This document shows positions 6,418 through 23,038 of a DNA stretch of 64,000 nucleotides, piece after piece; the first letter of the stretch is position 1; each line of letters begins with the position of its first letter. The position numbers were made by a program, and so were the translations under genes. Below the pieces are notes generated by a model. The model saw only the letters and a program-made list of their open reading frames with translations, made no database searches and had not been told where the DNA came from. The DNA is taken from sequence record NC_042307.1. One strand, given 5' to 3'. The DNA comes from a phage.

Positions 6418-9207
6418 GTGTTTTCTATCCTCCAAGGTCACGCCGGATTTTCTCGTGATTTAGCAACAGGTATTTGGCGAGAAATCAAAGCGGAAGATTA
6501 TACCTTTGCCAAGCGATTCTCGAAAGAGCATCCAGAAGGTAAACCAGCTTCTATGCCCTTCAAATTTGATGTAATAGAAGAGCACGACCCACAAAGCCTT
6601 GCCGAAATGTTACCCCTTATGAGACGTTTAACGTCTGATCCTCATATCGTTGCGGTACGAGGTCGATGTCTTGCACCAAAAAATAATGTGCGACGTAAGA
6701 AAGGTAACTTTAATGTATCTAATCCTAGTAATATTATTGCTATGGACGTGGATGGTATCCTAGATACCGGTGGGTACGACAAATTTAATCTTGTTGGTAT
6801 GGCCCGCCACATTATTAAGATGTTGAATAGTATTAGTGAGGATATGTTTCCTCTTGATGCAGGCTTTATAGCTCATGCATCGTCTTCGGCTGGGCTAAAA
6901 CCAGGTATCCGAATGCACTTAATGCTAGAATCTAACGTCAAGGTAACTCAGGGTCAGCTAAAGTTCTTATTTACATCTATCAACGATAGCAGTAAGCAAA
7001 AATTTGGTTTTGATATTGCCGACCTAGCTTATTATTCATCTGTCCAGCTCCACTATTTTGCCGACCCCTTATTTAGCGATGGTATTGTTGATCCGTTTAA
7101 AGCGGAGAGTAAGCCACGTCTGGTGTATGTTAAAGGTTCGAAAGTAAATTTGCCCAATAATCTGGTTGACTATGAAACAACTAGAGGGGAGTTTAAGGAA
7201 GAGTTTTATTCCTTACTTGATCAAATTAAAGGCAAAAAGATTGCTTCTGATAAAGTAGAAGAAACCATCAGCGAGTTAGAAGAGGCTGATGATGGAGTGT
7301 ATTTGCGTATTATCCCCAAACTATATCATAGAGCATTAGAGGATGGGGTTGATTTTGCATGGCTAGAACGTGAGATTAAACCAGCTTTATCTGAATATAT
7401 TGCAACTAAAGATAACAGTCGTAATATTCAAGATTACTTTAATAACGGTCGTAAGCAGGCTCTCAAAGCGTTTGTGAATAACTCCAAACGTGAGATTCCA
7501 TTAAATCTGAAAGGTGTTCCACTTAAGAAATTAGAAGTGGATTCTCCACCAGAAGTTCCATACCTGAAGATTAACATTGTGCCCCCAAAAGGCCATATAA
7601 CATTTGTTAAGGCAAGTCTTGGTACTGGTAAAACTACGGCAGTAACTAAATGGCTGGACGCAGGTGTTCTTCCTGGCAACTTTTTAGCAGTTACAAATAC
7701 TAGAGCACTAGTGTCTTCAAATGCTAAGAAATTTAGTGCAGGACAATATGATAAGTCTGTAGATATGCTTAATTTCAAGCGTGGTGCTATTGACCGTATG
7801 TCCACAACTATTCACTCTTTGCACAAGTTTAAGAGTTTTATTGGTCAAATTGATGCAATCTTTATCGATGAATGTGATGCAGTAATGAATGACTTATTAT
7901 TCGCCCCCGTTGTTAAACAACGTCGTGAATGTATTCAGGTTCTTCGGGATATTCTTGCAACTGCAAAAATAATTATATTATCTGATGGTGATATTAGTGC
8001 AGAAACAATTGAAGCCTATGGTTCTTTGATTGATTTTGATAAACCAGTAGCATTTTATAATCATCATCGTAAGATGCTGTCAAAAGCTCACGCTTATGAG
8101 TTTCCTGATGAATCCAGTATTTGGGTTGCACTTCAGACTTCTCTAGAAATGGGTGAGAAGTCCATTCTAGTATCTGATTGTGGGCCTGATGAGCTGAATG
8201 AGAAGGGTATGGCACTACGTCGTAATACTGGTGCGTTAGTTAAGGAAATCCATTCAAACTCTACCTCAGATGTGGATATTCGACGTATTCTGGATTATAC
8301 AACTAATGAGCTAATTGATCAACAAATTGATTGCTTATTATGTAGTCCATCCGTAACGAGTGGCGTTGACTTCAACTATTTCGATAATGTATTTGTTATT
8401 ACTAGAACCAGTAATCAGGCGCCGAACATGCGTTTCCAAGCAATCAGGCGCGACCGTGGTGCTCAGAACATCTATTATTTTATTGATAAATCCACTAGTG
8501 GGTTCTCCGCAGGTTCTGAACAATATAATATTGATGAAGGTTGGCTGGAGTTAGCACAGCAATTATACGCACGTCGTAGAGAGCTGGAATCTAGAAACTA
8601 TACTAGTACCTTACGTTATTATTTGCTTGATCAGGGCGCAACTATTGATATTTTCAGCGAAAGCTGGGGAACTATTGAAGGTGCTGGTAAAGAATATACA
8701 GAAGAGCGAATCAAAGCTATTCTGCATTCAACTCCAGATTATTGTGCCCCACGTCATGCAGATGCATATGAAGCTAAACTACTTCTTGTTCGCTATTATC
8801 ATCTTGAGTCTATTAAAGATGTAACAGTTGAGCATGTTGAACAATATATCAAAGATAAACCGAATGATCGAGCTGCATTCTTCCATAAGATGCACGAGAT
8901 GTTCTGGGAAGATATTAAGAAGTGTTCAAATGTAACCATTAAACCATTCATAGAAGCTCTGAAAGGTAAGAAGAAAGACTTCTTCCTTAAAACAGGTCAG
9001 AGTGCTAACCCAAAATATGCTAGAATGTATCTTGGTATGATGGGTATTGGTAAGGATATGAACACTGAAAATATCGTAGACTGGTACAGAACCTATTGTA
9101 AAATCGAGTGTATGCCGATTCCTTTCAAATTCATGACTGACGAGGAAAAACATATGCATGATGAAGCAATGTCAGAGCTAGGTGCTAGAAATGACAGTGA
9201 AGAATAA
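6418..9207 (+). CDS. putative replication primase-helicase / origin-binding-like protein (P-loop NTPase)
   Basis: 929 aa, GTG start with AGGAG RBS; N-terminal acidic DxD (IIAMDVDGI) and MHLMLE motifs suggestive of primase-polymerase fold; Walker A ASLGTGKTTAV and Walker B FIDECDAV. Confidence 0.6.
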   Translation: MFSILQGHAGFSRDLATGIWREIKAEDYTFAKRFSKEHPEGKPASMPFKFDVIEEHDPQSLAEMLPLMRRLTSDPHIVAVRGRCLAPKNNVRRKKGNFNVSNPSNIIAMDVDGILDTGGYDKFNLVGMARHIIKMLNSISEDMFPLDAGFIAHASSSAGLKPGIRMHLMLESNVKVTQGQLKFLFTSINDSSKQKFGFDIADLAYYSSVQLHYFADPLFSDGIVDPFKAESKPRLVYVKGSKVNLPNNLVDYETTRGEFKEEFYSLLDQIKGKKIASDKVEETISELEEADDGVYLRIIPKLYHRALEDGVDFAWLEREIKPALSEYIATKDNSRNIQDYFNNGRKQALKAFVNNSKREIPLNLKGVPLKKLEVDSPPEVPYLKINIVPPKGHITFVKASLGTGKTTAVTKWLDAGVLPGNFLAVTNTRALVSSNAKKFSAGQYDKSVDMLNFKRGAIDRMSTTIHSLHKFKSFIGQIDAIFIDECDAVMNDLLFAPVVKQRRECIQVLRDILATAKIIILSDGDISAETIEAYGSLIDFDKPVAFYNHHRKMLSKAHAYEFPDESSIWVALQTSLEMGEKSILVSDCGPDELNEKGMALRRNTGALVKEIHSNSTSDVDIRRILDYTTNELIDQQIDCLLCSPSVTSGVDFNYFDNVFVITRTSNQAPNMRFQAIRRDRGAQNIYYFIDKSTSGFSAGSEQYNIDEGWLELAQQLYARRRELESRNYTSTLRYYLLDQGATIDIFSESWGTIEGAGKEYTEERIKAILHSTPDYCAPRHADAYEAKLLLVRYYHLESIKDVTVEHVEQYIKDKPNDRAAFFHKMHEMFWEDIKKCSNVTIKPFIEALKGKKKDFFLKTGQSANPKYARMYLGMMGIGKDMNTENIVDWYRTYCKIECMPIPFKFMTDEEKHMHDEAMSELGARNDSEE

Positions 9208-11445: not shown

Positions 11446-11601
11446 ATGACCAAAGCTGAAATTATCGCACAATGTGAAAAATTTGGTGAGTTTTATCTTC
11501 ATTACGAGAAACTTCGTCAGAAAGGAACCACGTACCTTCAGGGTACGATGGAATTTGATCCAGCTCAGGATAAATACCTGGCTGAGCGTATTAAACAGTG
11601 A
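11446..11601 (+). CDS. small protein (51 aa), possibly 5' part of a frame-interrupted gene
   Basis: ATG 11446 preceded by AAAAGGAAC; coding-like codon usage; ends ...AERIKQ-TGA; coding-like sequence continues in +1 frame to 11743. Confidence 0.4.
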   Translation: MTKAEIIAQCEKFGEFYLHYEKLRQKGTTYLQGTMEFDPAQDKYLAERIKQ

Positions 11602-11602
11602 A

Positions 11603-11743
11603 CGTATTCGTAAAGCGAAAGATGATGAAATCCTTGTCTTCTCTCGTACTAATGATAGCTTCCGTTTTATTCCTGTCGAGAAAGTTCGTCGTGTGACTAG
11701 CCTCCAATCAGAGTTAGATCGTGCTTCTCCAGTAGGCCGATAA
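11603..11743 (+). other. coding-like segment in +1 frame relative to 11446..11601 (ERIRKAKDDEILVFSRTNDSFRFIPVEKVRRVTSLQSELDRASPVGR), no start codon
   Basis: Strong codon bias, open frame lacking ATG/RBS, immediately after the TGA of the upstream small ORF. Confidence 0.35.
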
Positions 11744-11753
11744 GAAAACAATT

Positions 11754-11776
11754 AGCCCCTATATGGGGCTTTTTGT
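11754..11776 (+). terminator. rho-independent terminator
   Basis: agcccc-tatat-ggggct followed by ttttt. Confidence 0.6.
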
Positions 11777-11793
11777 GTATTTGGGATGTGTAA

Positions 11794-12102
11794 ATGAGCG
11801 AACAGGTAAATCAAAACTATGAAGGACACGTTGATGACCAGTCCATCATACTTTGGGAGAAGGAGGGGGAACAAGTAAGATTAACAGTATCTGAATTTCG
11901 TGGGAATCTATACATGGGTATTCGTTACTGGCTTCTTGATATTAATGATGAATGGTTTCCAACGAAATCTGGCTTCTCTTTTCCTTACACCCTAGAAACA
12001 ACATCACAGCTTTTCTATGCGTTTACACAGATTCTTAGCGAATCTGAGGTTTTACATGAAGTACAGAAACGAGCTGAAGAACTAAAAGCCAAGAATGCCT
12101 AG
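11794..12102 (+). CDS. hypothetical protein
   Basis: 102-aa ORF; stop lies in loop of downstream terminator. Confidence 0.6.
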   Translation: MSEQVNQNYEGHVDDQSIILWEKEGEQVRLTVSEFRGNLYMGIRYWLLDINDEWFPTKSGFSFPYTLETTSQLFYAFTQILSESEVLHEVQKRAEELKAKNA

Positions 12103-12116
12103 TTCTTGGCTTTTTC
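12088..12116 (+). terminator. rho-independent terminator
   Basis: gccaagaa-tgcctag-ttcttggc followed by ttttt. Confidence 0.6.
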
Positions 12117-12124
12117 TTTATAAA

Positions 12125-12170
12125 TGTATTTGCTTTCAACTCAGTTTTGTTATATAATATTTATATAAAT
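12125..12170 (+). promoter_or_regulatory. T5 early-type promoter
   Basis: ttgctt 12130-12135, 17-bp spacer, tataat 12153-12158, then taaattaatgagag. Confidence 0.6.
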
Positions 12171-12189
12171 TAATGAGAGATATAAATAA

Positions 12190-13161
12190 ATGACTAATGT
12201 AAAAGAATTTATTAAACGCTGTCAAGAAGCATATTATCAAGGCATGTCTTTAATCTCAGATGAAGAATATGATCGCCTGGTAAAACGCTTCCCGTTAGAG
12301 GAAGAGATCGGGCCTAAGGGTGATATTCCACATCTATATCGTATGTATTCTTTACAGAAAGTTTACTATAACCGCGGTGATAAACCACCATTCAATCCGT
12401 TAGGTCAAGTAGAAACTGATAAGTTAGATGGTTGTGCAATTTCTCTGCTATATATTAATGGCGAATTTGTTCAAGCACTAACTCGTGGTAATGGTATTCT
12501 GGGGAATGATGTCACAAGCAACGTAAGATTGCTGAACATTCCTAAAAAGATTTCCCAAAAAGTACCTACTCAAATCACTGGTGAAGTTCTAATTACAAAA
12601 GAAGTAGAAAATAAACGTAACTTTGCCTCTGGTGCTATTAACCTCAAAGATAGCGATGATTTCGTACAACGTATCGGGGAAGGTGGTTTAATCTTCGTTG
12701 CATATGGTATCCAGTGTTCTGCTGAATCTGTAGGTATTACAGAAGCATATTTAAAAGATATGCTTTGGCTAGAGAATGAGAACTTCTTAACAGTTGTTAA
12801 TGTGCGTTCCTTCTTTAAATGGATTCCGACGGACGGTAAAGTTGTTCGTATTAATGACAACAACAAATTCTTCCGCGAAGGCTGGACTAATAAATTTCCT
12901 CGTGGAGCATTCGCTGTTAAAGAGGATGAAGAAGGCGAGATTACAACTCTTACTAAAGTTGAATGGCAGGTAGGGGCTTCTGGTAAAGTAACTCCAGTTG
13001 GTTATTTCGAACCGGTAATTATTGATGATGCTACAATTGTTAAGGCGACTCTTAATAACGTTGATTATATTAACTCTCTCGATCTAGAGATCGGTTGCCA
13101 GATTCGAGTGATTCGTGCTGGTGGTGTAATCCCATGCATAGTAGAGCGAGTATACGATTAA
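12190..13161 (+). CDS. NAD-dependent DNA ligase, N-terminal fragment (adenylation + OB domains; 'subunit A')
   Basis: KxDG adenylation motif KLDGCAIS; 323 aa ends before the Zn-finger/HhH/BRCT region, which is encoded by the next ORF. Confidence 0.8.
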   Translation: MTNVKEFIKRCQEAYYQGMSLISDEEYDRLVKRFPLEEEIGPKGDIPHLYRMYSLQKVYYNRGDKPPFNPLGQVETDKLDGCAISLLYINGEFVQALTRGNGILGNDVTSNVRLLNIPKKISQKVPTQITGEVLITKEVENKRNFASGAINLKDSDDFVQRIGEGGLIFVAYGIQCSAESVGITEAYLKDMLWLENENFLTVVNVRSFFKWIPTDGKVVRINDNNKFFREGWTNKFPRGAFAVKEDEEGEITTLTKVEWQVGASGKVTPVGYFEPVIIDDATIVKATLNNVDYINSLDLEIGCQIRVIRAGGVIPCIVERVYD

Positions 13162-13211
13162 TACATAACCCTTTGCTACCCATCTACCATATCGGAATTA
13201 TAAAGTGGTTA

Positions 13212-13240
13212 TTGACATTTTCGCCGCTTAGGTATATACT
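13212..13240 (+). promoter_or_regulatory. consensus-like sigma70 promoter inside the ligase inter-ORF spacer
   Basis: TTGACA (13212-13217), 17-bp spacer, TATACT (13235-13240). Confidence 0.5.
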
Positions 13241-13304
13241 ATTATCATTCAGTTGAGGGATAGAAAGTTATGGCGAGGGTAAGCAAAGTTAGTTAAAATT
13301 GTAG

Positions 13305-13333
13305 TTGCTAAATGCTTAAATACTTGCTATAAT
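13305..13333 (+). promoter_or_regulatory. T5 early-type promoter upstream of ligase C-terminal ORF
   Basis: ttgcta 13305-13310, 17-bp spacer, tataat 13328-13333, then atttatataaattgataagg. Confidence 0.6.
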
Positions 13334-13363
13334 ATTTATATAAATTGATAAGGAAGAAATTTG

Positions 13364-14143
13364 ATGAAAATCGAAATTCCAACACAATGTCCCTCTTGTG
13401 GTTCTAAGCTAGATCTTGTCAACGGACAATTATTCTGTCGTAATAAGTCCAACTGTCCAGCGCAATCAAGTAAGTTAATTGAGAACTTCTGTACAAAAAT
13501 GAAGTTAAAGGGCTTTGGCCCAAAAACTATTGAGAAGCTGGAGCTGACGAAGATTTCAGAACTATTTTACCTAACCGAAGAAGATTTGGTTAGAGCCGTG
13601 GGTAGCAAGGTTGCCGCTAAGTTAATTAGCGAATTAAATACTAAAGTTCGCGGAGACATTGACTTTGGTTCAGTTCTCGGTTCTTTAGGAATCACTCTAA
13701 TTGGAGAGGTTGCAGCAAAGAAATTATCCCAAAATTGCACTAGCTTCCATGATGTGAAGGCTGACGGCAAGGCTGGAGAAAATTACAAAGCCTGGCTAAA
13801 TTCCCCACAAGGCAAGGATGTTATTGAACTACCGTGGAAATTTTCAACTGGTATTAAGGGCACTAAAGCTGACGTCATCATTACAGATGAATTAGTTGCC
13901 CAGCCAAATGGAATCGCGGTATGTATTACCGGATCTTTGCAAGATTTTGCAAATAGAACGGATGCAACAAACTATTTAGAAAGTCTAGGGTATACGGTTA
14001 AGAAATCCGTTACCAAAGACGTCAAATACCTAATCTGTGAGGATGAATCGAAGCGTTCCTCCTCATCTTATAAGAAAGCCGAAACGAATGGGATAGAAAT
14101 CCTGTCGATTAAAGAACTATTGGAGAAAAATAATAATGTCTAA
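13364..14143 (+). CDS. NAD-dependent DNA ligase, C-terminal fragment (Zn-finger, HhH, BRCT-like; 'subunit B')
   Basis: C4 Zn-finger CPSCGSKLDLVNGQLFCRNKSNCPAQ near N-terminus, then helix-hairpin-helix-like GFGPKTIEKL; ATG 13364 with AAGGAAG RBS. Confidence 0.8.
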   Translation: MKIEIPTQCPSCGSKLDLVNGQLFCRNKSNCPAQSSKLIENFCTKMKLKGFGPKTIEKLELTKISELFYLTEEDLVRAVGSKVAAKLISELNTKVRGDIDFGSVLGSLGITLIGEVAAKKLSQNCTSFHDVKADGKAGENYKAWLNSPQGKDVIELPWKFSTGIKGTKADVIITDELVAQPNGIAVCITGSLQDFANRTDATNYLESLGYTVKKSVTKDVKYLICEDESKRSSSSYKKAETNGIEILSIKELLEKNNNV

Positions 14144-14903
14144 ACTGAACTGGAACGTAGAAGGTGTAACCGAGTCTCTGAAAGCAAAAGCCACTGCTCT
14201 GGGTGTTGCTGTAATCTCTCAAGAACAAGTAGCTGCTATCGCTGCTGAACTGGCTGCTGAAACTGGCAAAGATGTTACTGCTCGCTCTGTTGGCTCTAAG
14301 CTGCGTAAAGAAGGTTTTGAAGTACAAAAAGCTAACGAAGTACAGAAATCCCCGTGGACTCCTGAGCAGGAAGCTGAACTGGTTGATTTCCTGAACGCTC
14401 ATGCTGGTCAGTATACCTATGCTGAAATCGCTGCTGCTGTAGCTGGTGGTCAGTTCGGTGCTAAACAGGTACAGGGTAAGATCCTGAGTCTGGAAATGAC
14501 CGCTTCTGTTAAACCAACTGAAAAAGCTGCTGCTGTTCGTTCCTTCACTCCGGATGAAGAAACTGATTTTGTTAATCAGGTTGTTGCTGGAGCTACTATT
14601 GAAGCTATCGCTGCTCACTTCGGTCGCAATATTAAGCAGATCCGTGGTAAAGCTCTGAGCCTGCTTCGTGAAGGTCGTATCGCCGCTATGCCGGTACAGG
14701 AAACTTCAAGTGCTAAAACTCGTGAAGATCTGTTAGAAGGTCTGGATCTGGCTAACATGACTGTTGCTGAGATCGCTGAGAAAACTGGTAAGTCTGAGCG
14801 CGGTGTTAAATCTATGCTGTCTCGTCGTGGTCTGGTTGCTAAGGACTATGATGGTGCCGCTAAGCGTGCTAAACTGGATGCAAAAGCTGCGGCTGCTGAA
14901 TAA
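14136..14903 (+). CDS. highly expressed Ala-rich protein with four tandem HeH/Rho_N-like repeats (putative DNA-binding protein)
   Basis: Four repeats of ~40 aa (e.g. IAAELAAETGKDVTARSVGSKLRKEGF; MTVAEIAEKTGKSERGVKSMLSRRGL); strongly host-optimal codon usage. Confidence 0.7.
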   Translation: MSKLNWNVEGVTESLKAKATALGVAVISQEQVAAIAAELAAETGKDVTARSVGSKLRKEGFEVQKANEVQKSPWTPEQEAELVDFLNAHAGQYTYAEIAAAVAGGQFGAKQVQGKILSLEMTASVKPTEKAAAVRSFTPDEETDFVNQVVAGATIEAIAAHFGRNIKQIRGKALSLLREGRIAAMPVQETSSAKTREDLLEGLDLANMTVAEIAEKTGKSERGVKSMLSRRGLVAKDYDGAAKRAKLDAKAAAAE

Positions 14904-14920
14904 TCTGGTAAATTAAACCT

Positions 14921-14953
14921 AAGGGGAGGGGGCTATGCTCCTTCCCCTTTTTG
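14921..14953 (+). terminator. rho-independent terminator
   Basis: aaggggagg / ccttcccctt hairpin (one G-U position) followed by ttttt. Confidence 0.55.
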
Positions 14954-14985
14954 CATTTAGAAGGCACGAAAGCGTGCAAAGGAGA

Positions 14986-16458
14986 ATGACCTTGTTTAAC
15001 GTGCAAGCTGTAGTGTTGAAGATGCTTCTAGCTTCCGAACAGAAGCAAATAGCATTGGAAACATTCTCAAAACTGCATAAAGATCATTTTAATGACGCTT
15101 TCTCCTCAATTTACCAAGCCGTCCAGAATTATTATAAAAAATATAACACAATGCCGTCCATTGACGCACTGATGCTTGAGGCTAATAGGAACGCCCGCCT
15201 TTCTCAAGCTCTAGTCGTTTTAGCTAACACTCAAATTCCAGAAGTTAGCATGGAACAGGCACTTGAAGTCCTAGAGGCCGAGTATACGCAGGATTTATTC
15301 CTGAAGCTTCTAGAAACAGACGTGCTTCAAGATTTAACAATGCTGGATCAGGGAGAAATTCTTAACCGAGTTGCCTCCCTTCACTTAAAATTAGAAGAGA
15401 AAGTAACGAATACTGGAAAAGTATTCAACGCAGATAACATGCGTATTTTCCAGAGAGAAGAAGATACCAAACTGAACTTAATCGCTCTTGGTATTTGTAA
15501 TGAGTTCGACGCTCAAATTGGTTTAGCTCGCACAGAAACGTTACTGCTTGGTGGTTGGCGTGGTACTGGTAAATCCATTATCTGTTCAAACATACAGGTT
15601 CAGCAATATTTGAATGGAGATATTGCTCCATACTTCTCAATTGAGATGAAAGAACATGAAGTATTTAGACGTAATCTAGCCATGTTAGCTGGTGTATCAG
15701 CACTAGCAATGCGTAATAATACTCTAGAAGGTGCAGCTCTGTTGAGATTAGCCAGAACTAGAGCTAGAATGTTTAACGGTGGTGAAGAGCTTTTCGATAA
15801 CTTCGTTAAACAATACACAATGGCTAAGATGAGTGATTTCTACGATATGGAAAGTAAGCTAATAGAAGGATATGAGCTACATACTCCTATGATTATTGTT
15901 TATGATCCTGAGCTGTCTATTACAACAGTTGACGTAGAATTAAATAAATTAGTTGCTAGATATGGGGATAAAGTTACAGTAGCTTTACTTGACTATATTA
16001 ACCAAACCCGACTTCCAGATTCTAAAACCATTGATATGTATGACTGGAAAGAACAGATGGTTGTTAGCTCGTCTTTCAAATCCCTCTGCCAGAAACATAA
16101 CGTGGCTGGTGTAGCTCCTTACCAGATTGATCAAGATGGTAGAACACGTATGTCAAAAGGGATTCTTGATTCCGCAGACATGGCTGCTAATCTTAATGCT
16201 GCAAAAGCTGATAATGGTCAAGGTGCTATTATGTTTGACTTCGTTAAGACCCGTTCTTCTGATAGCGTGAAGTTTATGCCTAAAATGAACTGGGAAACCC
16301 TGCGGATGGATAACACTACCAACCTAGCAATGGAAGATATATCTCAAATGGAAGCTGAGTTCGTTATCCCTATTGAGAAGGATAAGCCAGCTCAATCTAA
16401 ACGTGCTAAGAAAGACAAAGCTGAAAATTCAACAGGTGAACAGGCCAGCGATATATGA
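14986..16458 (+). CDS. replicative DNA helicase (DnaB-like P-loop ATPase)
   Basis: Walker A LLLGGWRGTGKS; start moved from track 14935 (inside terminator hairpin) to ATG 14986 preceded by AAAGGAGA. Confidence 0.6.
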   Translation: MTLFNVQAVVLKMLLASEQKQIALETFSKLHKDHFNDAFSSIYQAVQNYYKKYNTMPSIDALMLEANRNARLSQALVVLANTQIPEVSMEQALEVLEAEYTQDLFLKLLETDVLQDLTMLDQGEILNRVASLHLKLEEKVTNTGKVFNADNMRIFQREEDTKLNLIALGICNEFDAQIGLARTETLLLGGWRGTGKSIICSNIQVQQYLNGDIAPYFSIEMKEHEVFRRNLAMLAGVSALAMRNNTLEGAALLRLARTRARMFNGGEELFDNFVKQYTMAKMSDFYDMESKLIEGYELHTPMIIVYDPELSITTVDVELNKLVARYGDKVTVALLDYINQTRLPDSKTIDMYDWKEQMVVSSSFKSLCQKHNVAGVAPYQIDQDGRTRMSKGILDSADMAANLNAAKADNGQGAIMFDFVKTRSSDSVKFMPKMNWETLRMDNTTNLAMEDISQMEAEFVIPIEKDKPAQSKRAKKDKAENSTGEQASDI

Positions 16459-20995: not shown

Positions 20996-22338
20996 AGGTT
21001 GTTATATCTAATAAAGCCTATTTCAAGCCCGATGATGAACTTTGGGATTATTGTAGTAAGCAAACCACTTATCACATAGAGACAATGACTAGTAAATACC
21101 CTATTATGTATAAGAATAGTGGTGTTGTTGCCAAAGAGATTAAGTGGATTCCTATTACGCGTCTGGACTTATTAGATGCTAAAGGAATAAAATACGAATT
21201 AGTCGATAAACGCACATTAGCTCCGGTAGATATACCAGAACCGTCGTTTAAACTGCGTGAAGAAGATCAGCTTCCAATATACGAAGAATGCGATGATACC
21301 TGTATTATTAATGGTAAGCCTGGGTTTGGTAAAACTATCCTAGCACTTGCACTTGCGTATAAATTTGGCCAGAAAACTTTGGTAATCTGTACGAATACAT
21401 CCATTCGTGAAATGTGGGCGGCAGAAGTTCGTAAATGGTTTGGGTTTGAACCAGGCATCATAGGTTCTGGAAAGTACAATATTGATCCACCCATTGTGGT
21501 CAGTAATATTCAAACAGTGAATAAACATGCGAATAATCTTTCTAAAGTATTCGGTACTGTTATAGTTGATGAAGTTCACCATTGTGTGGCTACAACTTTC
21601 ACTAACTTCCTAGAAATATCATGTGCTCGCTATAAAATTGGACTATCCGGTACACTAAAACGAAAAGATGGTCTACAAGTTATGTTCAAAGATTTCTTTG
21701 GATATAAGATATTTAGCCCACCGGTTAATAATACTGTTGCACCTACAATCCATAGGTACTCCGTGCCTGTTGAGCTATCAGGAAACCAAAACGTACCGTG
21801 GGCATTACGTGCTAACGATGTGTATAACCATCCTGAATACCGAGAGACTATTATAAACCTAGCACATCTATATGTGAATATGGGGCATAAAGTACTCATT
21901 CTAAGTGATAGAACAGAGTTAATCCAAACAGTACTAGAAGCTCTTGCACAGCGTGGTGTTACAACCTATGAGATTATAGGTGCAACCCACTTAGATGACA
22001 GATTAAAAATTCAGGAAGATATAGCAAAAGGTGGGCCGTGTGTGCTTGCAGCAGCTCAAAGCATCTTCTCCGAAGGTATTTCACTTAACGAGCTGTCTTG
22101 TTTAATAATGGGGAGCCTCATTAATAATGAATCTCTCATTGAACAGCTTGCAGGCCGTGTTCAACGTATTGTCGAGGGTAAACTCGACCCAATCGTTGTA
22201 GATCTAATTATGAAAGGTGGCACTGGGTTAAGGCAGGCTTCTGGACGTATGGCCGTGTATCGCAATAACGCGTGGAAAGTAATCACAATGACCCCTGAGA
22301 AAGCTGTGAGATTAGCACAAGAAATATTTAAAACTTGA
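20992..22338 (+). CDS. SF2 DNA helicase (DEAH-like; T5 D10-like)
   Basis: Walker A GKPGFGKT, Walker B IVDEVHH, helicase C-terminal motifs (QLAGRVQR). Confidence 0.8.
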   Translation: MKVVISNKAYFKPDDELWDYCSKQTTYHIETMTSKYPIMYKNSGVVAKEIKWIPITRLDLLDAKGIKYELVDKRTLAPVDIPEPSFKLREEDQLPIYEECDDTCIINGKPGFGKTILALALAYKFGQKTLVICTNTSIREMWAAEVRKWFGFEPGIIGSGKYNIDPPIVVSNIQTVNKHANNLSKVFGTVIVDEVHHCVATTFTNFLEISCARYKIGLSGTLKRKDGLQVMFKDFFGYKIFSPPVNNTVAPTIHRYSVPVELSGNQNVPWALRANDVYNHPEYRETIINLAHLYVNMGHKVLILSDRTELIQTVLEALAQRGVTTYEIIGATHLDDRLKIQEDIAKGGPCVLAAAQSIFSEGISLNELSCLIMGSLINNESLIEQLAGRVQRIVEGKLDPIVVDLIMKGGTGLRQASGRMAVYRNNAWKVITMTPEKAVRLAQEIFKT

Positions 22339-22339
22339 C

Positions 22340-22873
22340 ATGATAACTCAACAAAGATTAAAAGAATTACTAATATATGATCCAGATTCTGGCCACTTTA
22401 TTAACAAGGTGTCCAGGGGCAGAGGAGGTAAAATTGGGGCTATTGCTGGAAGTCCTGATAAAGATGGATATATAATCATAGGTATAGATAGGAAATCTTA
22501 TAAAGCCCATCGCTTAGCCTTCTTGTACATGGAAGGCTATATGCCTACTGAAGTAGACCACGATAATAGAATACCTTATGATAATAAATGGAGTAACTTA
22601 AAAGATTCTTCTCATTCGGAAAATATGAAAAACCGTAACCCTTATAGTAAATCTGGTTATAAAGGAGTTACGTGGAATAAGGTTAAGAAGAAATGGCAAG
22701 TACAAGTGTGTAGGTCAGATGGTTCTACAGTTTATGGTGGGTTATTCCCTTATGAAGAATTAGAGTTAGCTATAAATAAAGCTAATGAACTTAGAGTACA
22801 GCATCTAGGTATGGATTCCAGGCAAGAACTATTTAAAGGATATATTTGCCGACGTGAGGACTTAGATAAGTAA
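22340..22873 (+). CDS. HNH homing endonuclease
   Basis: MITQQRLKELLIYDPDSGHF..., YKAHRLAFLYMEGYMPTEVDHDNR. Confidence 0.8.
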   Translation: MITQQRLKELLIYDPDSGHFINKVSRGRGGKIGAIAGSPDKDGYIIIGIDRKSYKAHRLAFLYMEGYMPTEVDHDNRIPYDNKWSNLKDSSHSENMKNRNPYSKSGYKGVTWNKVKKKWQVQVCRSDGSTVYGGLFPYEELELAINKANELRVQHLGMDSRQELFKGYICRREDLDK

Positions 22874-22881
22874 AATTGCAT

Positions 22882-22910
22882 TTGGCAACTGCTCATAATT
22901 ATTGTATAAT
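22882..22910 (+). promoter_or_regulatory. T5 early-type promoter (first of tandem pair)
   Basis: ttggca 22882-22887, 17-bp spacer, tataat 22905-22910, then cataaatttgagagag. Confidence 0.55.
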
Positions 22911-22981
22911 ATACACATAAATTTGAGAGAGAAAGTTTCGGATTGATAAGAAAGTCCGAAGCAGAAAAATAAAAATTGTAC

Positions 22982-23011
22982 TTGTCAAATCCTCCCGATT
23001 TAATGTATAAT
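22982..23011 (+). promoter_or_regulatory. T5 early-type promoter (second of tandem pair)
   Basis: ttgtca 22982-22987, 18-bp spacer, tataat 23006-23011, then cataaattgatgagagac. Confidence 0.55.
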
Positions 23012-23038
23012 ATATACATAAATTGATGAGAGACAAAA

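Follow-up and report, generated by a model that had tools for sequence, protein, structure and literature searches.

The locus at positions 12,190 to 14,143 of the phage sequence NC_042307.1 raises the question of how an NAD-dependent DNA ligase that is specified by two separate open reading frames, ligA and ligB, is made, and of what the spacer lying between them is. The whole sequence of 64,000 nt is referred to below as the window. On sequence grounds the window can be assigned to a T5-like phage (Tequintavirus): its nucleotide identity with T5 amounts to 97.8% over 2.1 kb at this locus, and the T5 record names the same genes and promoters, ligA and ligB being T5p114 and T5p115 (AAU05253 and AAU05254) and the promoters between them P-K28b and P-K28a. 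Both phages have the same series of elements here (PC4-like gene, promoter, ligA, two promoters, ligB, D5, dnaB) and differ only by strain-level substitutions. The split NAD-dependent ligase is already known in T5 and its relatives, where it is annotated as subunits A and B, and has been documented since the T5 genome paper of 2005. The gene arrangement, which was correctly read from the raw sequence without being recognized as the one published for T5, adds no new biology, and a literature search yielded no biochemistry on the T5 LigA and LigB proteins. What is new here is modest: the split is derived, an unsplit syntenic relative being available, and the promoter cassette located between the two genes is strongly conserved.

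The ligA gene (12190-13161, plus strand; stop codon TAA at 13159-13161) encodes subunit A, a protein of 323 aa consisting of a putative short domain Ia, a nucleotidyltransferase domain and an OB fold. It matches the Pfam families DNA_ligase_aden (PF01653, E 2.2e-23, above the curated cut-off) and DNA_ligase_OB (PF03120, E 3.8e-22), the OB fold aligning with residues 284-390 of the E. coli LigA. The KxDG motif reads K78-L-D-G81, and K78, D80 and G81 are invariant in the ten split and fused relatives. The putative domain Ia, which in the LigA family binds the NMN moiety of NAD+ and bears the signature Y-[HY]...D..YD, is shorter than its bacterial counterparts: AYYQGMSLISDEEYDRL pairs, as a weak stretch, with RYYVLADPEISDAEYDRLL of PDB 1v9p, and the residues Y15, G18 and D28 in this region are invariant across the relatives compared. 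The protein is 99.7% identical in amino acid sequence to the T5 LigA and matches chain A of PDB 9hu3 with an E-value of 1.1e-103.

The ligB gene (13364-14143, plus strand) encodes subunit B, a protein of 259 aa when counted from the ATG, in which a Cys4 Zn finger is followed by an HhH region of reduced length and by a BRCT domain; in the T5 record the start is a TTG located one codon 5' of this ATG (13361 here). The Shine-Dalgarno sequence AAGGA (13350-13354, plus strand), 9 nt 5' of the ATG, is invariant in close relatives. Pfam recognizes the BRCT domain (E 5.7e-8), while HHH_2 remains below its cut-off (20.9 vs 27 bits). In the alignment with the E. coli LigA (PDB 2owo), residues 3-122 of LigB cover the Zn-finger/HhH region (402-529) and a further segment covers the BRCT region (585-666); the Zn-finger cysteines C9, C12, C25 and C31 are invariant across the relatives. 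LigB matches chain B of PDB 9hu3 with an E-value of 8.5e-80, and the same chain is the top PDB match of its AlphaFold2 model (mean pLDDT 85). The earlier note had made the adenylation/OB part with its KxDG motif end at 13161 and the Zn-finger/HhH/BRCT part start at 13364 with its own ribosome-binding site: the former agrees with the coordinates and the Pfam matches, and the latter with the open reading frame, the domains and the AAGGA. The comparison with LigA profiles, which it had named as a possible refutation, places both halves in the LigA family, on the basis of the Pfam matches and the alignment with the E. coli enzyme.

The domains of the E. coli LigA (671 aa) follow the same order (Ia, which is putative in the phage, then NTase, OB, Zn, HhH and BRCT), and it has the same KxDG lysine and the same Cys4 finger; the N-terminal half of the phage enzyme aligns with it up to about residue 390 and the C-terminal half from residue 402. 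The E. coli enzyme is a single polypeptide, whereas that of the phage is compact, totalling 582 aa, its putative domain Ia and its HhH region both being short. Where E. coli has an OB-Zn linker of about 10 residues, the phage has a stop codon followed by the spacer and another start. The KxDG domain, the OB fold and the Zn finger/HhH/BRCT part of the LigA family can thus all be recognized in the phage proteins, for which the use of NAD+ is predicted. Since there is no single polypeptide, what we have here is a split variant of the family, as named in the case of T5; judging from the sequence, it is of the T5 LigA/LigB type, with two same-strand genes homologous to those of T5 and broken in the OB-Zn linker.

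The comparison with the ligase loci of related phages, which had been proposed as a check, showed that the gene is split at the same residue in every member of the Demerecviridae inspected, including Sugarlandvirus, Novosibvirus, Shenzhenvirus, Thalassavirus and the oyster Vibrio phages. There is one break point: all the LigA sequences end at one alignment column and all the LigB sequences start at one methionine. The gap between ligA and ligB in the relatives consists of 183-200 nt or contains 1-3 ORFs; some Vibrio and Proteus phages have unrelated ORFs between the halves, and in the relatives the distance reaches 1.36 kb, three ORFs being present in that case. In addition, about 100 cluster representatives that resemble LigB and stand alone were found, each of roughly 250 aa. 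In nine relatives, the variable sites at codon position 3 versus position 2 amount to 58% versus 9% in ligA and to 29% versus 5% in ligB, a pattern indicating that purifying selection acts on both halves. Insertions into the spacer were suspected to account for the extra length observed in many relatives, but these proved to be small ORFs located upstream of ligA, except in TrudiRoth.

The closest structural counterpart is the heterodimeric DNA ligase of the Providencia phage PR1 (PDB 9hu3 and 9i5i, released on 2026-01-14). The entry 9hu3, the chain B of which is 100% identical to Providencia phage PR1, is entitled 'PR1 phage heterodimeric DNA ligase in complex with 21-mer nicked DNA containing phage nick sequence'; the evidence for the heterodimer consists of this title and the chain composition, and no paper on PDB 9hu3 or on a 'heterodimeric DNA ligase' was found in a literature search. 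Like the present ligase, that of PR1 is divided into two chains at the same point, and it was solved on nicked DNA. It differs from that of the present phage in its sequence (identity roughly 55-60%), in its subunit A of 339 aa with small insertions, and in its subunit B of 248 aa, which lacks part of the linker 164-180 predicted with low confidence in the model of the present LigB.

In the light of these data, the locus very probably encodes an NAD+-dependent ligase of the LigA type, the gene of which is divided in the short OB-Zn linker and the two products of which act together as subunits. The production of the ligase as two polypeptides, the first of the two alternatives in the earlier note, is supported by the subunit annotation in T5, the constant break point, the ORFs lying between the halves and the structure 9hu3. 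On subunit A (putative domain Ia, adenylation domain and OB fold), NAD+ would be bound and K78 would become the lysyl-AMP intermediate; the DNA-binding half of the clamp would come from subunit B (Zn finger, HhH and BRCT); and the two would associate non-covalently on nicked DNA, where the nick would be sealed. This division of labour is proposed by analogy with LigA biochemistry and with an experiment on truncated LigN, in which the LigA-type N-terminal fragment self-adenylated and no ligation occurred without the ZnF/HhH/BRCT part. From the homology with PDB 9hu3, we infer that the two proteins of the present phage form an active enzyme.

The question then arises as to what the 202-nt spacer (13162-13363, plus strand) contains. 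It carries the ligB leader and two promoters on the plus strand: P-K28b (TTGACA-17-TATACT, 13212-13240), which matches the consensus hexamers at 11 of 12 positions, and P-K28a (TTGCTA-17-TATAAT with an upstream TG, 13305-13333), which matches them at 10 of 12; both lie at places matching those of the features named 'promoter P-K 28b' and 'promoter P-K 28a' in T5. In raw numbers, promoter-like sites are no more frequent here than would be expected by chance (5 found vs 7.8 expected), and these two are credible because they have the two best plus-strand scores, coincide with features named in T5 and are conserved in the family. Counterparts of both sites are present in KpGranit, Aeromonas TS3, Proteus RP7, Vibrio D239 and Thalassa, and each of the six family genomes read retains the layout with two promoters. 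The two sigma70-type promoters that the earlier note had seen in the spacer were thus recovered by the scan as well as in T5 and across the family. The ligA gene is preceded by a promoter of its own (TTGCTT-17-TATAAT, 12130-12158, plus strand), which was read from the sequence and has a 'putative promoter' of T5 at the matching place; it fell under the scan threshold because its -35 hexamer matches at only 3 of 6 positions. It shares the -10 hexamer and the initial transcribed region, TATAATATTTATATAAATT, with P-K28a, and the 19-mer common to the two has exact copies at 12153 and 13328.

The consensus of the T5 early promoters includes an A/T-rich discriminator, ATATT (PMC7472727), and the TATA-ATATT-TAT present at both P-K28a and the ligA promoter fits this consensus, whereas P-K28b has CTATT instead. 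On the strength of their hexamers, 17-nt spacing, discriminator and position in T5, P-K28a and P-K28b can be classed as T5 early sigma-70 promoters that are predicted to be active, their activity being assumed from the GenBank feature names. No paper was found in a literature search on P-K28a and P-K28b. Transcription from P-K28a would give a ligB leader of about 23 nt, and the leader from P-K28b, of about 90 nt, contains a conserved Shine-Dalgarno-like GAGGGA and no conserved ORF. The activity of the two promoters was reportedly described by Gentz and Bujard in 1985.

The conservation of the spacer is uneven. It was measured by counting the variable sites in nine genomes and by population identity bands. 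In the 5' part (13162-13194, plus strand), 18 of the 33 sites vary among nine close relatives, and it is at this position that other relatives carry extra DNA or small ORFs (about 156 extra nt in TrudiRoth, and ORFs in Proteus and Vibrio phages). The remainder (13195-13363, plus strand), consisting of the tandem early-promoter cassette and the ligB leader, is nearly invariant: 4 of its 169 sites vary in the nine relatives, in which the variable sites amount to 27.6% in ligA and 14.5% in ligB. An identity of 99% or more is shown by this core in 415 of 438 phage records, as compared with 14 of 416 and 16 of 401 in the case of coding pieces of equal length. Since the promoter-bearing part is more conserved in the nine relatives than even the second codon positions, it is not decaying. 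A single-genome identity test against the phage ende was dropped: the coding DNA is also full of long identical runs, the genomes being recombination mosaics. Elsewhere in the window, a second, similar tandem early-promoter pair is present at 22874-23038, ahead of unrelated genes.

Upstream of ligA, a terminator-like hairpin with a T run (12084-12114, plus strand; 13-pair stem, TCTTTAT tail) follows an ORF with a PC4 domain and is the end of the upstream transcription unit. A sub-threshold sRNA match was also obtained with Rfam on a terminator hairpin at 11731-11774. There is no terminator between ligA and ligB. Downstream, the D5 DNA-binding protein gene (14136-14903, plus strand) begins with an ATG that overlaps the end of ligB (ATGTCTAA), and the two genes therefore form one transcription unit, driven by P-K28b and P-K28a. 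The spacer would therefore be the start of a transcription unit and not debris, its promoters driving ligB and the translationally coupled D5, which would be followed by the helicase gene on the same strand, while ligA would depend on its own promoter.

How the gene came to be split is a separate matter. An unsplit ligase of 557 aa is encoded in a distant T5-like metagenomic contig, in the syntenic PC4-ligase-D5-DnaB-primase position, and ten fused proteins align colinearly across the break; the split is therefore derived, the direction (fission and not fusion) being based on outgroup logic. Unsplit compact LigA proteins of this kind (P0225, P0151, P0172 and others, 555-578 aa) show 33-40% identity to LigA plus LigB and the same compact domains, and P0225 lies in a syntenic T5-like replication module. 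In contrast to the phage genes, they are continuous through the linker (e.g. ...IINVLSSGTGRIIAPTECPSC...) and have no intergenic promoters there; they are available only from uncultured contigs. It is possible, although we rate the chances at clearly less than even, that the once continuous gene was broken up by a mobile element from which the spacer descends; this could have been a homing endonuclease gene or else a 'moron' cassette with promoters. The unsplit syntenic ligase and the colinear fused proteins speak for such an event, as do the foreign ORFs accepted by the gap in relatives and the mobility of HNH endonuclease genes in such genomes (an HNH_3 ORF present at 22340-22873 is absent from ende). 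The conserved part of the spacer nevertheless consists of promoters and not of gene remnants, and the fission is oriented by the outgroup only. Pfam searches on five intervening ORFs of relatives and on an unannotated 60-aa ORF of TrudiRoth detected no domain above threshold, and no HNH, GIY-YIG or LAGLIDADG domain in particular, the sole match being a sub-threshold DprA-like one. The idea that the spacer is the remnant of an excised endonuclease gene or intron could not be upheld, as the present sequence shows no Rfam intron match, significant fold or decay of the promoter-bearing part, and the intervening ORFs of relatives no endonuclease domain. An origin by mobile insertion would be purely historical and is compatible with the two-subunit explanation.

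Another possibility is that the separate promoters make the amount or timing of LigB differ from that of LigA, or serve a second task of LigB involving its BRCT domain, so that the ligase activity could be tuned, the site-specific nicks of T5-type genomes being spared, for instance. In favor of this idea, three promoters serve ligB as against one for ligA, the cassette is nearly invariant in close relatives with a layout kept family-wide, and the title of 9hu3 ties the enzyme to a 'phage nick sequence'. We regard it as unlikely, however, given the second tandem pair mentioned above: such a cassette is thus used by T5 as a general device, and at the present locus it may be aimed at D5 and the replication genes instead of ligB. 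That the P-K28b leader or an unequal promoter supply regulates LigB relative to LigA, the fission having been selected for and not merely tolerated, seems to us quite improbable.

It is very improbable that an insertion inactivated the ligase gene, leaving the two ORFs as halves in decay, and that the phage uses the LigA of its host. The host does have an NAD-dependent ligase, and a shortened ligB is annotated in the Eps7 record, but both halves occur with the same boundaries in all the family members inspected, down to about 50% amino acid identity, with variation concentrated at third codon positions and with invariant catalytic lysine motif and Zn-finger cysteines, and a homologous pair has been solved bound to nicked DNA. 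The family-wide split at the same residue and the unrelated ORFs in some of the gaps argue against a pseudogene and equally against an intron or a bypass. That the spacer might be an intron or a translational bypass element giving one full-length ligase is favored by nothing more than the known cases in which phage genes are interrupted (group I introns, the T4 gene 60 bypass) and can practically be dismissed, since there are several stops in all three frames of the spacer, the frame of ligB is shifted by +1 relative to that of ligA, ligB is provided with a conserved Shine-Dalgarno sequence and ATG, up to 1.36 kb and three ORFs separate the halves in relatives, and the deposited homologue consists of two separate chains. 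An Rfam scan of positions 11500-15000 with E-values of up to 1 gave no match with an intron family, and the predicted folding of the spacer RNA does not surpass that of shuffled sequence (z -0.78), which rules out an intron or a structured RNA; readthrough and frameshifting are ruled out by the stops in all frames and the differing frames of the two genes.

The T5-type enzyme is therefore best regarded as a naturally split LigA, which shows that a bacterial-type ligase can work with its catalytic half and its DNA-clamping half on separate proteins. As such, it is of interest for studies on the mechanism of ligases and their engineering, and on the handling of the site-specific nicks in the DNA of T5-type phages. 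The derived split and the conserved cassette might provide a context for studies on why the gene was split. If regulation via the leader or the promoters did prove to be true, it would set the time of nick sealing in a phage which packages a deliberately nicked genome.

The NAD-dependent DNA ligase is encoded in the window by two genes on the + strand: ligA (12190–13161; 323 aa; TAA at 13159–13161), encoding subunit A, and ligB (13364–14143; 259 aa), encoding subunit B and preceded nine bases upstream by its own ribosome-binding site, AAGGA. The ORF list and the sequence confirmed every coordinate proposed in the earlier note for these genes and the spacer between them (13162–13363), as well as the ligB ribosome-binding site. 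Both products are related to LigA, as had been suggested: Pfam detected the LigA adenylation domain (PF01653, E 2.2e-23) and OB fold (PF03120, E 3.8e-22) in the ligA product and a BRCT domain (E 5.7e-8) in the ligB product, which aligns to residues 402–529 (Zn finger and HhH) and 585–666 (BRCT) of E. coli LigA (PDB 2owo). The catalytic residues K78, D80, and G81 of LigA and the zinc-binding residues C9, C12, C25, and C31 of LigB are conserved. Among nine Markadamsvirinae showing 87–98% overall identity, 27.6% of the ligA sites are variable (58% at codon position 3, 9% at position 2) and 14.5% of those of ligB (29 and 5%, respectively), and purifying selection was shown to act on both genes.

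The region 12100–14200 shows 97.8% identity to phage T5 (AY692264); of the 445 phage records that it matches, nearly all belong to Tequintavirus or Epseptimavirus. The split ligase is already known: its essentials are annotated and cited in the literature, and the structure of a homolog has been solved. This structure, PDB 9hu3 (also 9i5i), is the strongest outside evidence for two proteins, the main reading of the earlier note, which is supported. It is a two-chain entry, entitled [quoted passage not shown] and released on 2026-01-14, in which the ligA half matches chain A (E 1.1e-103) and the ligB half chain B (E 8.5e-80); our literature search found no publication behind it. The ligB product of Providencia phage vB_PreS_PR1, which belongs to the same family as the window phage, shows 100% identity to chain B; this chain is also the best PDB match of the AlphaFold2 model of LigB (mean pLDDT 85). 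A single chain is further opposed by the several stop codons present in all three frames of the spacer and by the different frames of ligA and ligB; Rfam yielded no intron, and shuffled sequence folds as well as the spacer RNA (z -0.78).

The spacer consists of 202 non-coding bases following the ligA TAA. The promoter scan placed there the two promoters previously noted, both on the + strand: P-K28b at 13212–13240 (TTGACA-17-TATACT) and P-K28a at 13305–13333 (TTGCTA-17-TATAAT, with an upstream TG). Since the surrounding 2.7 kb contains five promoter-like sites vs. 7.8 expected from shuffled sequence, which is not above expectation, the scan alone is little proof, and it is annotation and conservation that carry the case. 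The sites coincide with "promoter P-K 28b" and "promoter P-K 28a" in the T5 record, which also has a "putative promoter" 5' of ligA. Both are reportedly among the very strong T5 promoters that Gentz and Bujard isolated by function in 1985. In the nine Markadamsvirinae, 54.5% of the sites are variable in the first 33 nt of the spacer (13162–13194) vs. 2.4% in the remaining 169 nt (13195–13363). The latter show at least 99% identity in 415 of the 438 matching phage records, as compared with 14/416 and 16/401 for equal-length coding pieces of ligA and ligB, these genomes being recombination mosaics with long identical runs elsewhere also. In distant relatives, the spacer sequence has diverged and the layout is retained: TTGAC(A/G)-17-TATA(C/A)T, followed about 85–100 nt on by a second promoter with the -10 hexamer TATAAT (TATACT in Aeromonas phage TS3), directly 5' of the ligB ribosome-binding site. 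The spacer is thus a conserved promoter cassette. A Shine-Dalgarno-like GAGGGA lies about 15 nt 3' of the P-K28b -10 hexamer and precedes an 8-codon ORF, MARVSKVS (13271–13297; whole element 13255–13297). The Shine-Dalgarno-like part occurs at the same place in the Klebsiella, Aeromonas, Vibrio, and Proteus relatives, the mini-ORF not being conserved; this element could stabilize the mRNA, be the vestige of a gene start, or belong to the promoter.

The sequence TATAATATTTATATAAATT, which spans the -10 hexamer plus the initial transcribed region, is present in identical copies 5' of ligA (12153) and ligB (13328). With up to three mismatches, it has seven matches in the window vs. 0.19 expected (2176, 12153, 13328, 22905, 23006, and 56281 on the + strand; 43508 on the - strand), and it agrees with the ATATT discriminator that PMC7472727 reports in T5 early promoters. 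At 22874–23038, T5 early-type promoters occur in tandem a second time, their -10 hexamers (22905 and 23006) being separated by about 101 nt. This pair has the same layout as the ligA-ligB spacer, and its first promoter precedes GAGAGAGAAAG and a hairpin (TTTCGGA...TCCGAA). The cassette is therefore not ligase-specific but a T5 device of general use. A 177-aa ORF at 22340–22873 carries an HNH_3 endonuclease domain (E 1e-8), and the window does not align with Salmonella phage ende at 22316–22871; it is apparently a free-standing homing endonuclease gene that some T5-like genomes possess and others lack.

Comparison with the ligase loci of related phages, as the earlier note had advised, showed separate ligA and ligB genes in all five further genera or groups of Demerecviridae examined, over a range of LigA identity from 72% down to 49%. 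The gap measures about 200 nt in Klebsiella phage KpGranit and about 183 nt in Aeromonas phage TS3, and holds a 55-aa ORF in Proteus phage RP7, a 98-aa ORF in Vibrio phage D239, and three ORFs (1.36 kb) in Vibrio phage Thalassa. Foreign ORFs, where present, lie 3' of the ligA stop and 5' of the first promoter. The spacer of Escherichia phage TrudiRoth (L005, about 2030–2215) is some 156 nt longer than that of the window, the extra DNA, directly 3' of the ligA stop, containing an unannotated 60-aa ORF (MLEALEKLFWNG...) for which Pfam gave no match; downstream of it, the promoter core is unaltered. The intervening ORFs of RP7, D239, and Thalassa and the TrudiRoth ORF gave no Pfam domain above threshold and do not resemble homing endonucleases. 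Together with the negative Rfam and folding results, this leaves the proposal that the spacer is the remnant of an intron or endonuclease gene unsupported for the present sequence; such an element is only a possible historical cause of the split. The LigB homologs all begin at one methionine (M-K/Q-I-x-I-P-x-x-C-P-x-C) and the split LigA proteins all terminate at one alignment column, and these shared ends indicate that the family-wide split stems from one ancestral event. When 1.84 billion cluster representatives were searched, stand-alone proteins of roughly 225–270 aa made up about 100 of the 150 best matches. In the record of Escherichia phage Eps7 (L016, 1954–2343), ligB is annotated as 390 nt only, yet the DNA aligns at full length, and the short gene is probably a frameshift or an annotation artifact of an old record. 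T5-like ligase sequences also occur under the labels Campylobacter, Brucella melitensis, Salmonella enterica, and Listeria phage LM 4-11-1 (short fragments, 100% identical over 169 nt); contamination of public data or mislabelling of phage contigs is the probable cause.

The same search yielded compact single-chain relatives of 555–578 aa. Ten fused forms, known from metagenomes only, are colinear with LigA plus LigB at 33–40% identity and continuous through the break, the window phage missing only a few linker residues. One of them, P0225, is most closely related, among isolated phages, to the split Demerecviridae ligases. Its 18-kb contig carries a PC4-like gene, the ligase, a D5-like gene (44% identical to the window D5), a DnaB-like helicase (29%), and a primase, in the same order as the window. 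Since this syntenic form is fused and LigA is also a single chain in bacteria and jumbo phages, the continuous gene is likely to be ancestral and the split derived, an argument based on these comparisons. Inside the unsplit ligase gene of metagenome contig L012 (Ga0502775_0003803), a strong promoter-like site (8992–9020; TTGACA-17-CATAAT with upstream TG, 11/12) lies about 50 nt 3' of the position equivalent to the T5 break. It may be due to chance (eight sites found vs. 7.4 expected in the region); as a possible forerunner of the intergenic promoters, it would be of interest. At 59–2429, this T5-like contig also carries genes whose Pfam domains are of the NAPRTase/NAMPT and ribose-phosphate pyrophosphokinase families; they may form an NAD+ salvage pair, a few kb from the NAD-dependent ligase.

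As regards the mechanism, LigA would bind NAD+ via the short domain Ia (AYYQGMSLISDEEYDRL) and adenylate K78, LigB would provide the BRCT domain along with the DNA-binding surface of Zn finger and HhH, and the pair would close round the nick in the manner of single-chain LigA. In agreement with this division of labor, an N-terminal fragment of LigN, an enzyme of the LigA type, shows normal self-adenylation and is incapable of ligation (PMC1684257). A terminator-like hairpin at 12084–12114 precedes ligA and its own promoter. Further upstream, a weak Rfam match to the Streptococcus sRNA SpF51 (11731–11774; 28.7 bits vs. a gathering score of 50) is overlapped by a bidirectional terminator-like hairpin (11754–11770), to which it is most likely a chance match. 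The end of ligB overlaps the start of the DNA-binding protein gene D5 (14136–14903) at 14136–14143 (ATGTCTAA, stop and start codons), which suggests that D5 is translationally coupled to ligB; a helicase gene is next on the same strand. Since no terminator was predicted between the two ligase genes, ligB can be transcribed from three promoters. The subunits might consequently be produced in unequal amounts, and this might be relevant to the sealing or sparing of the nicks of T5-type DNA.
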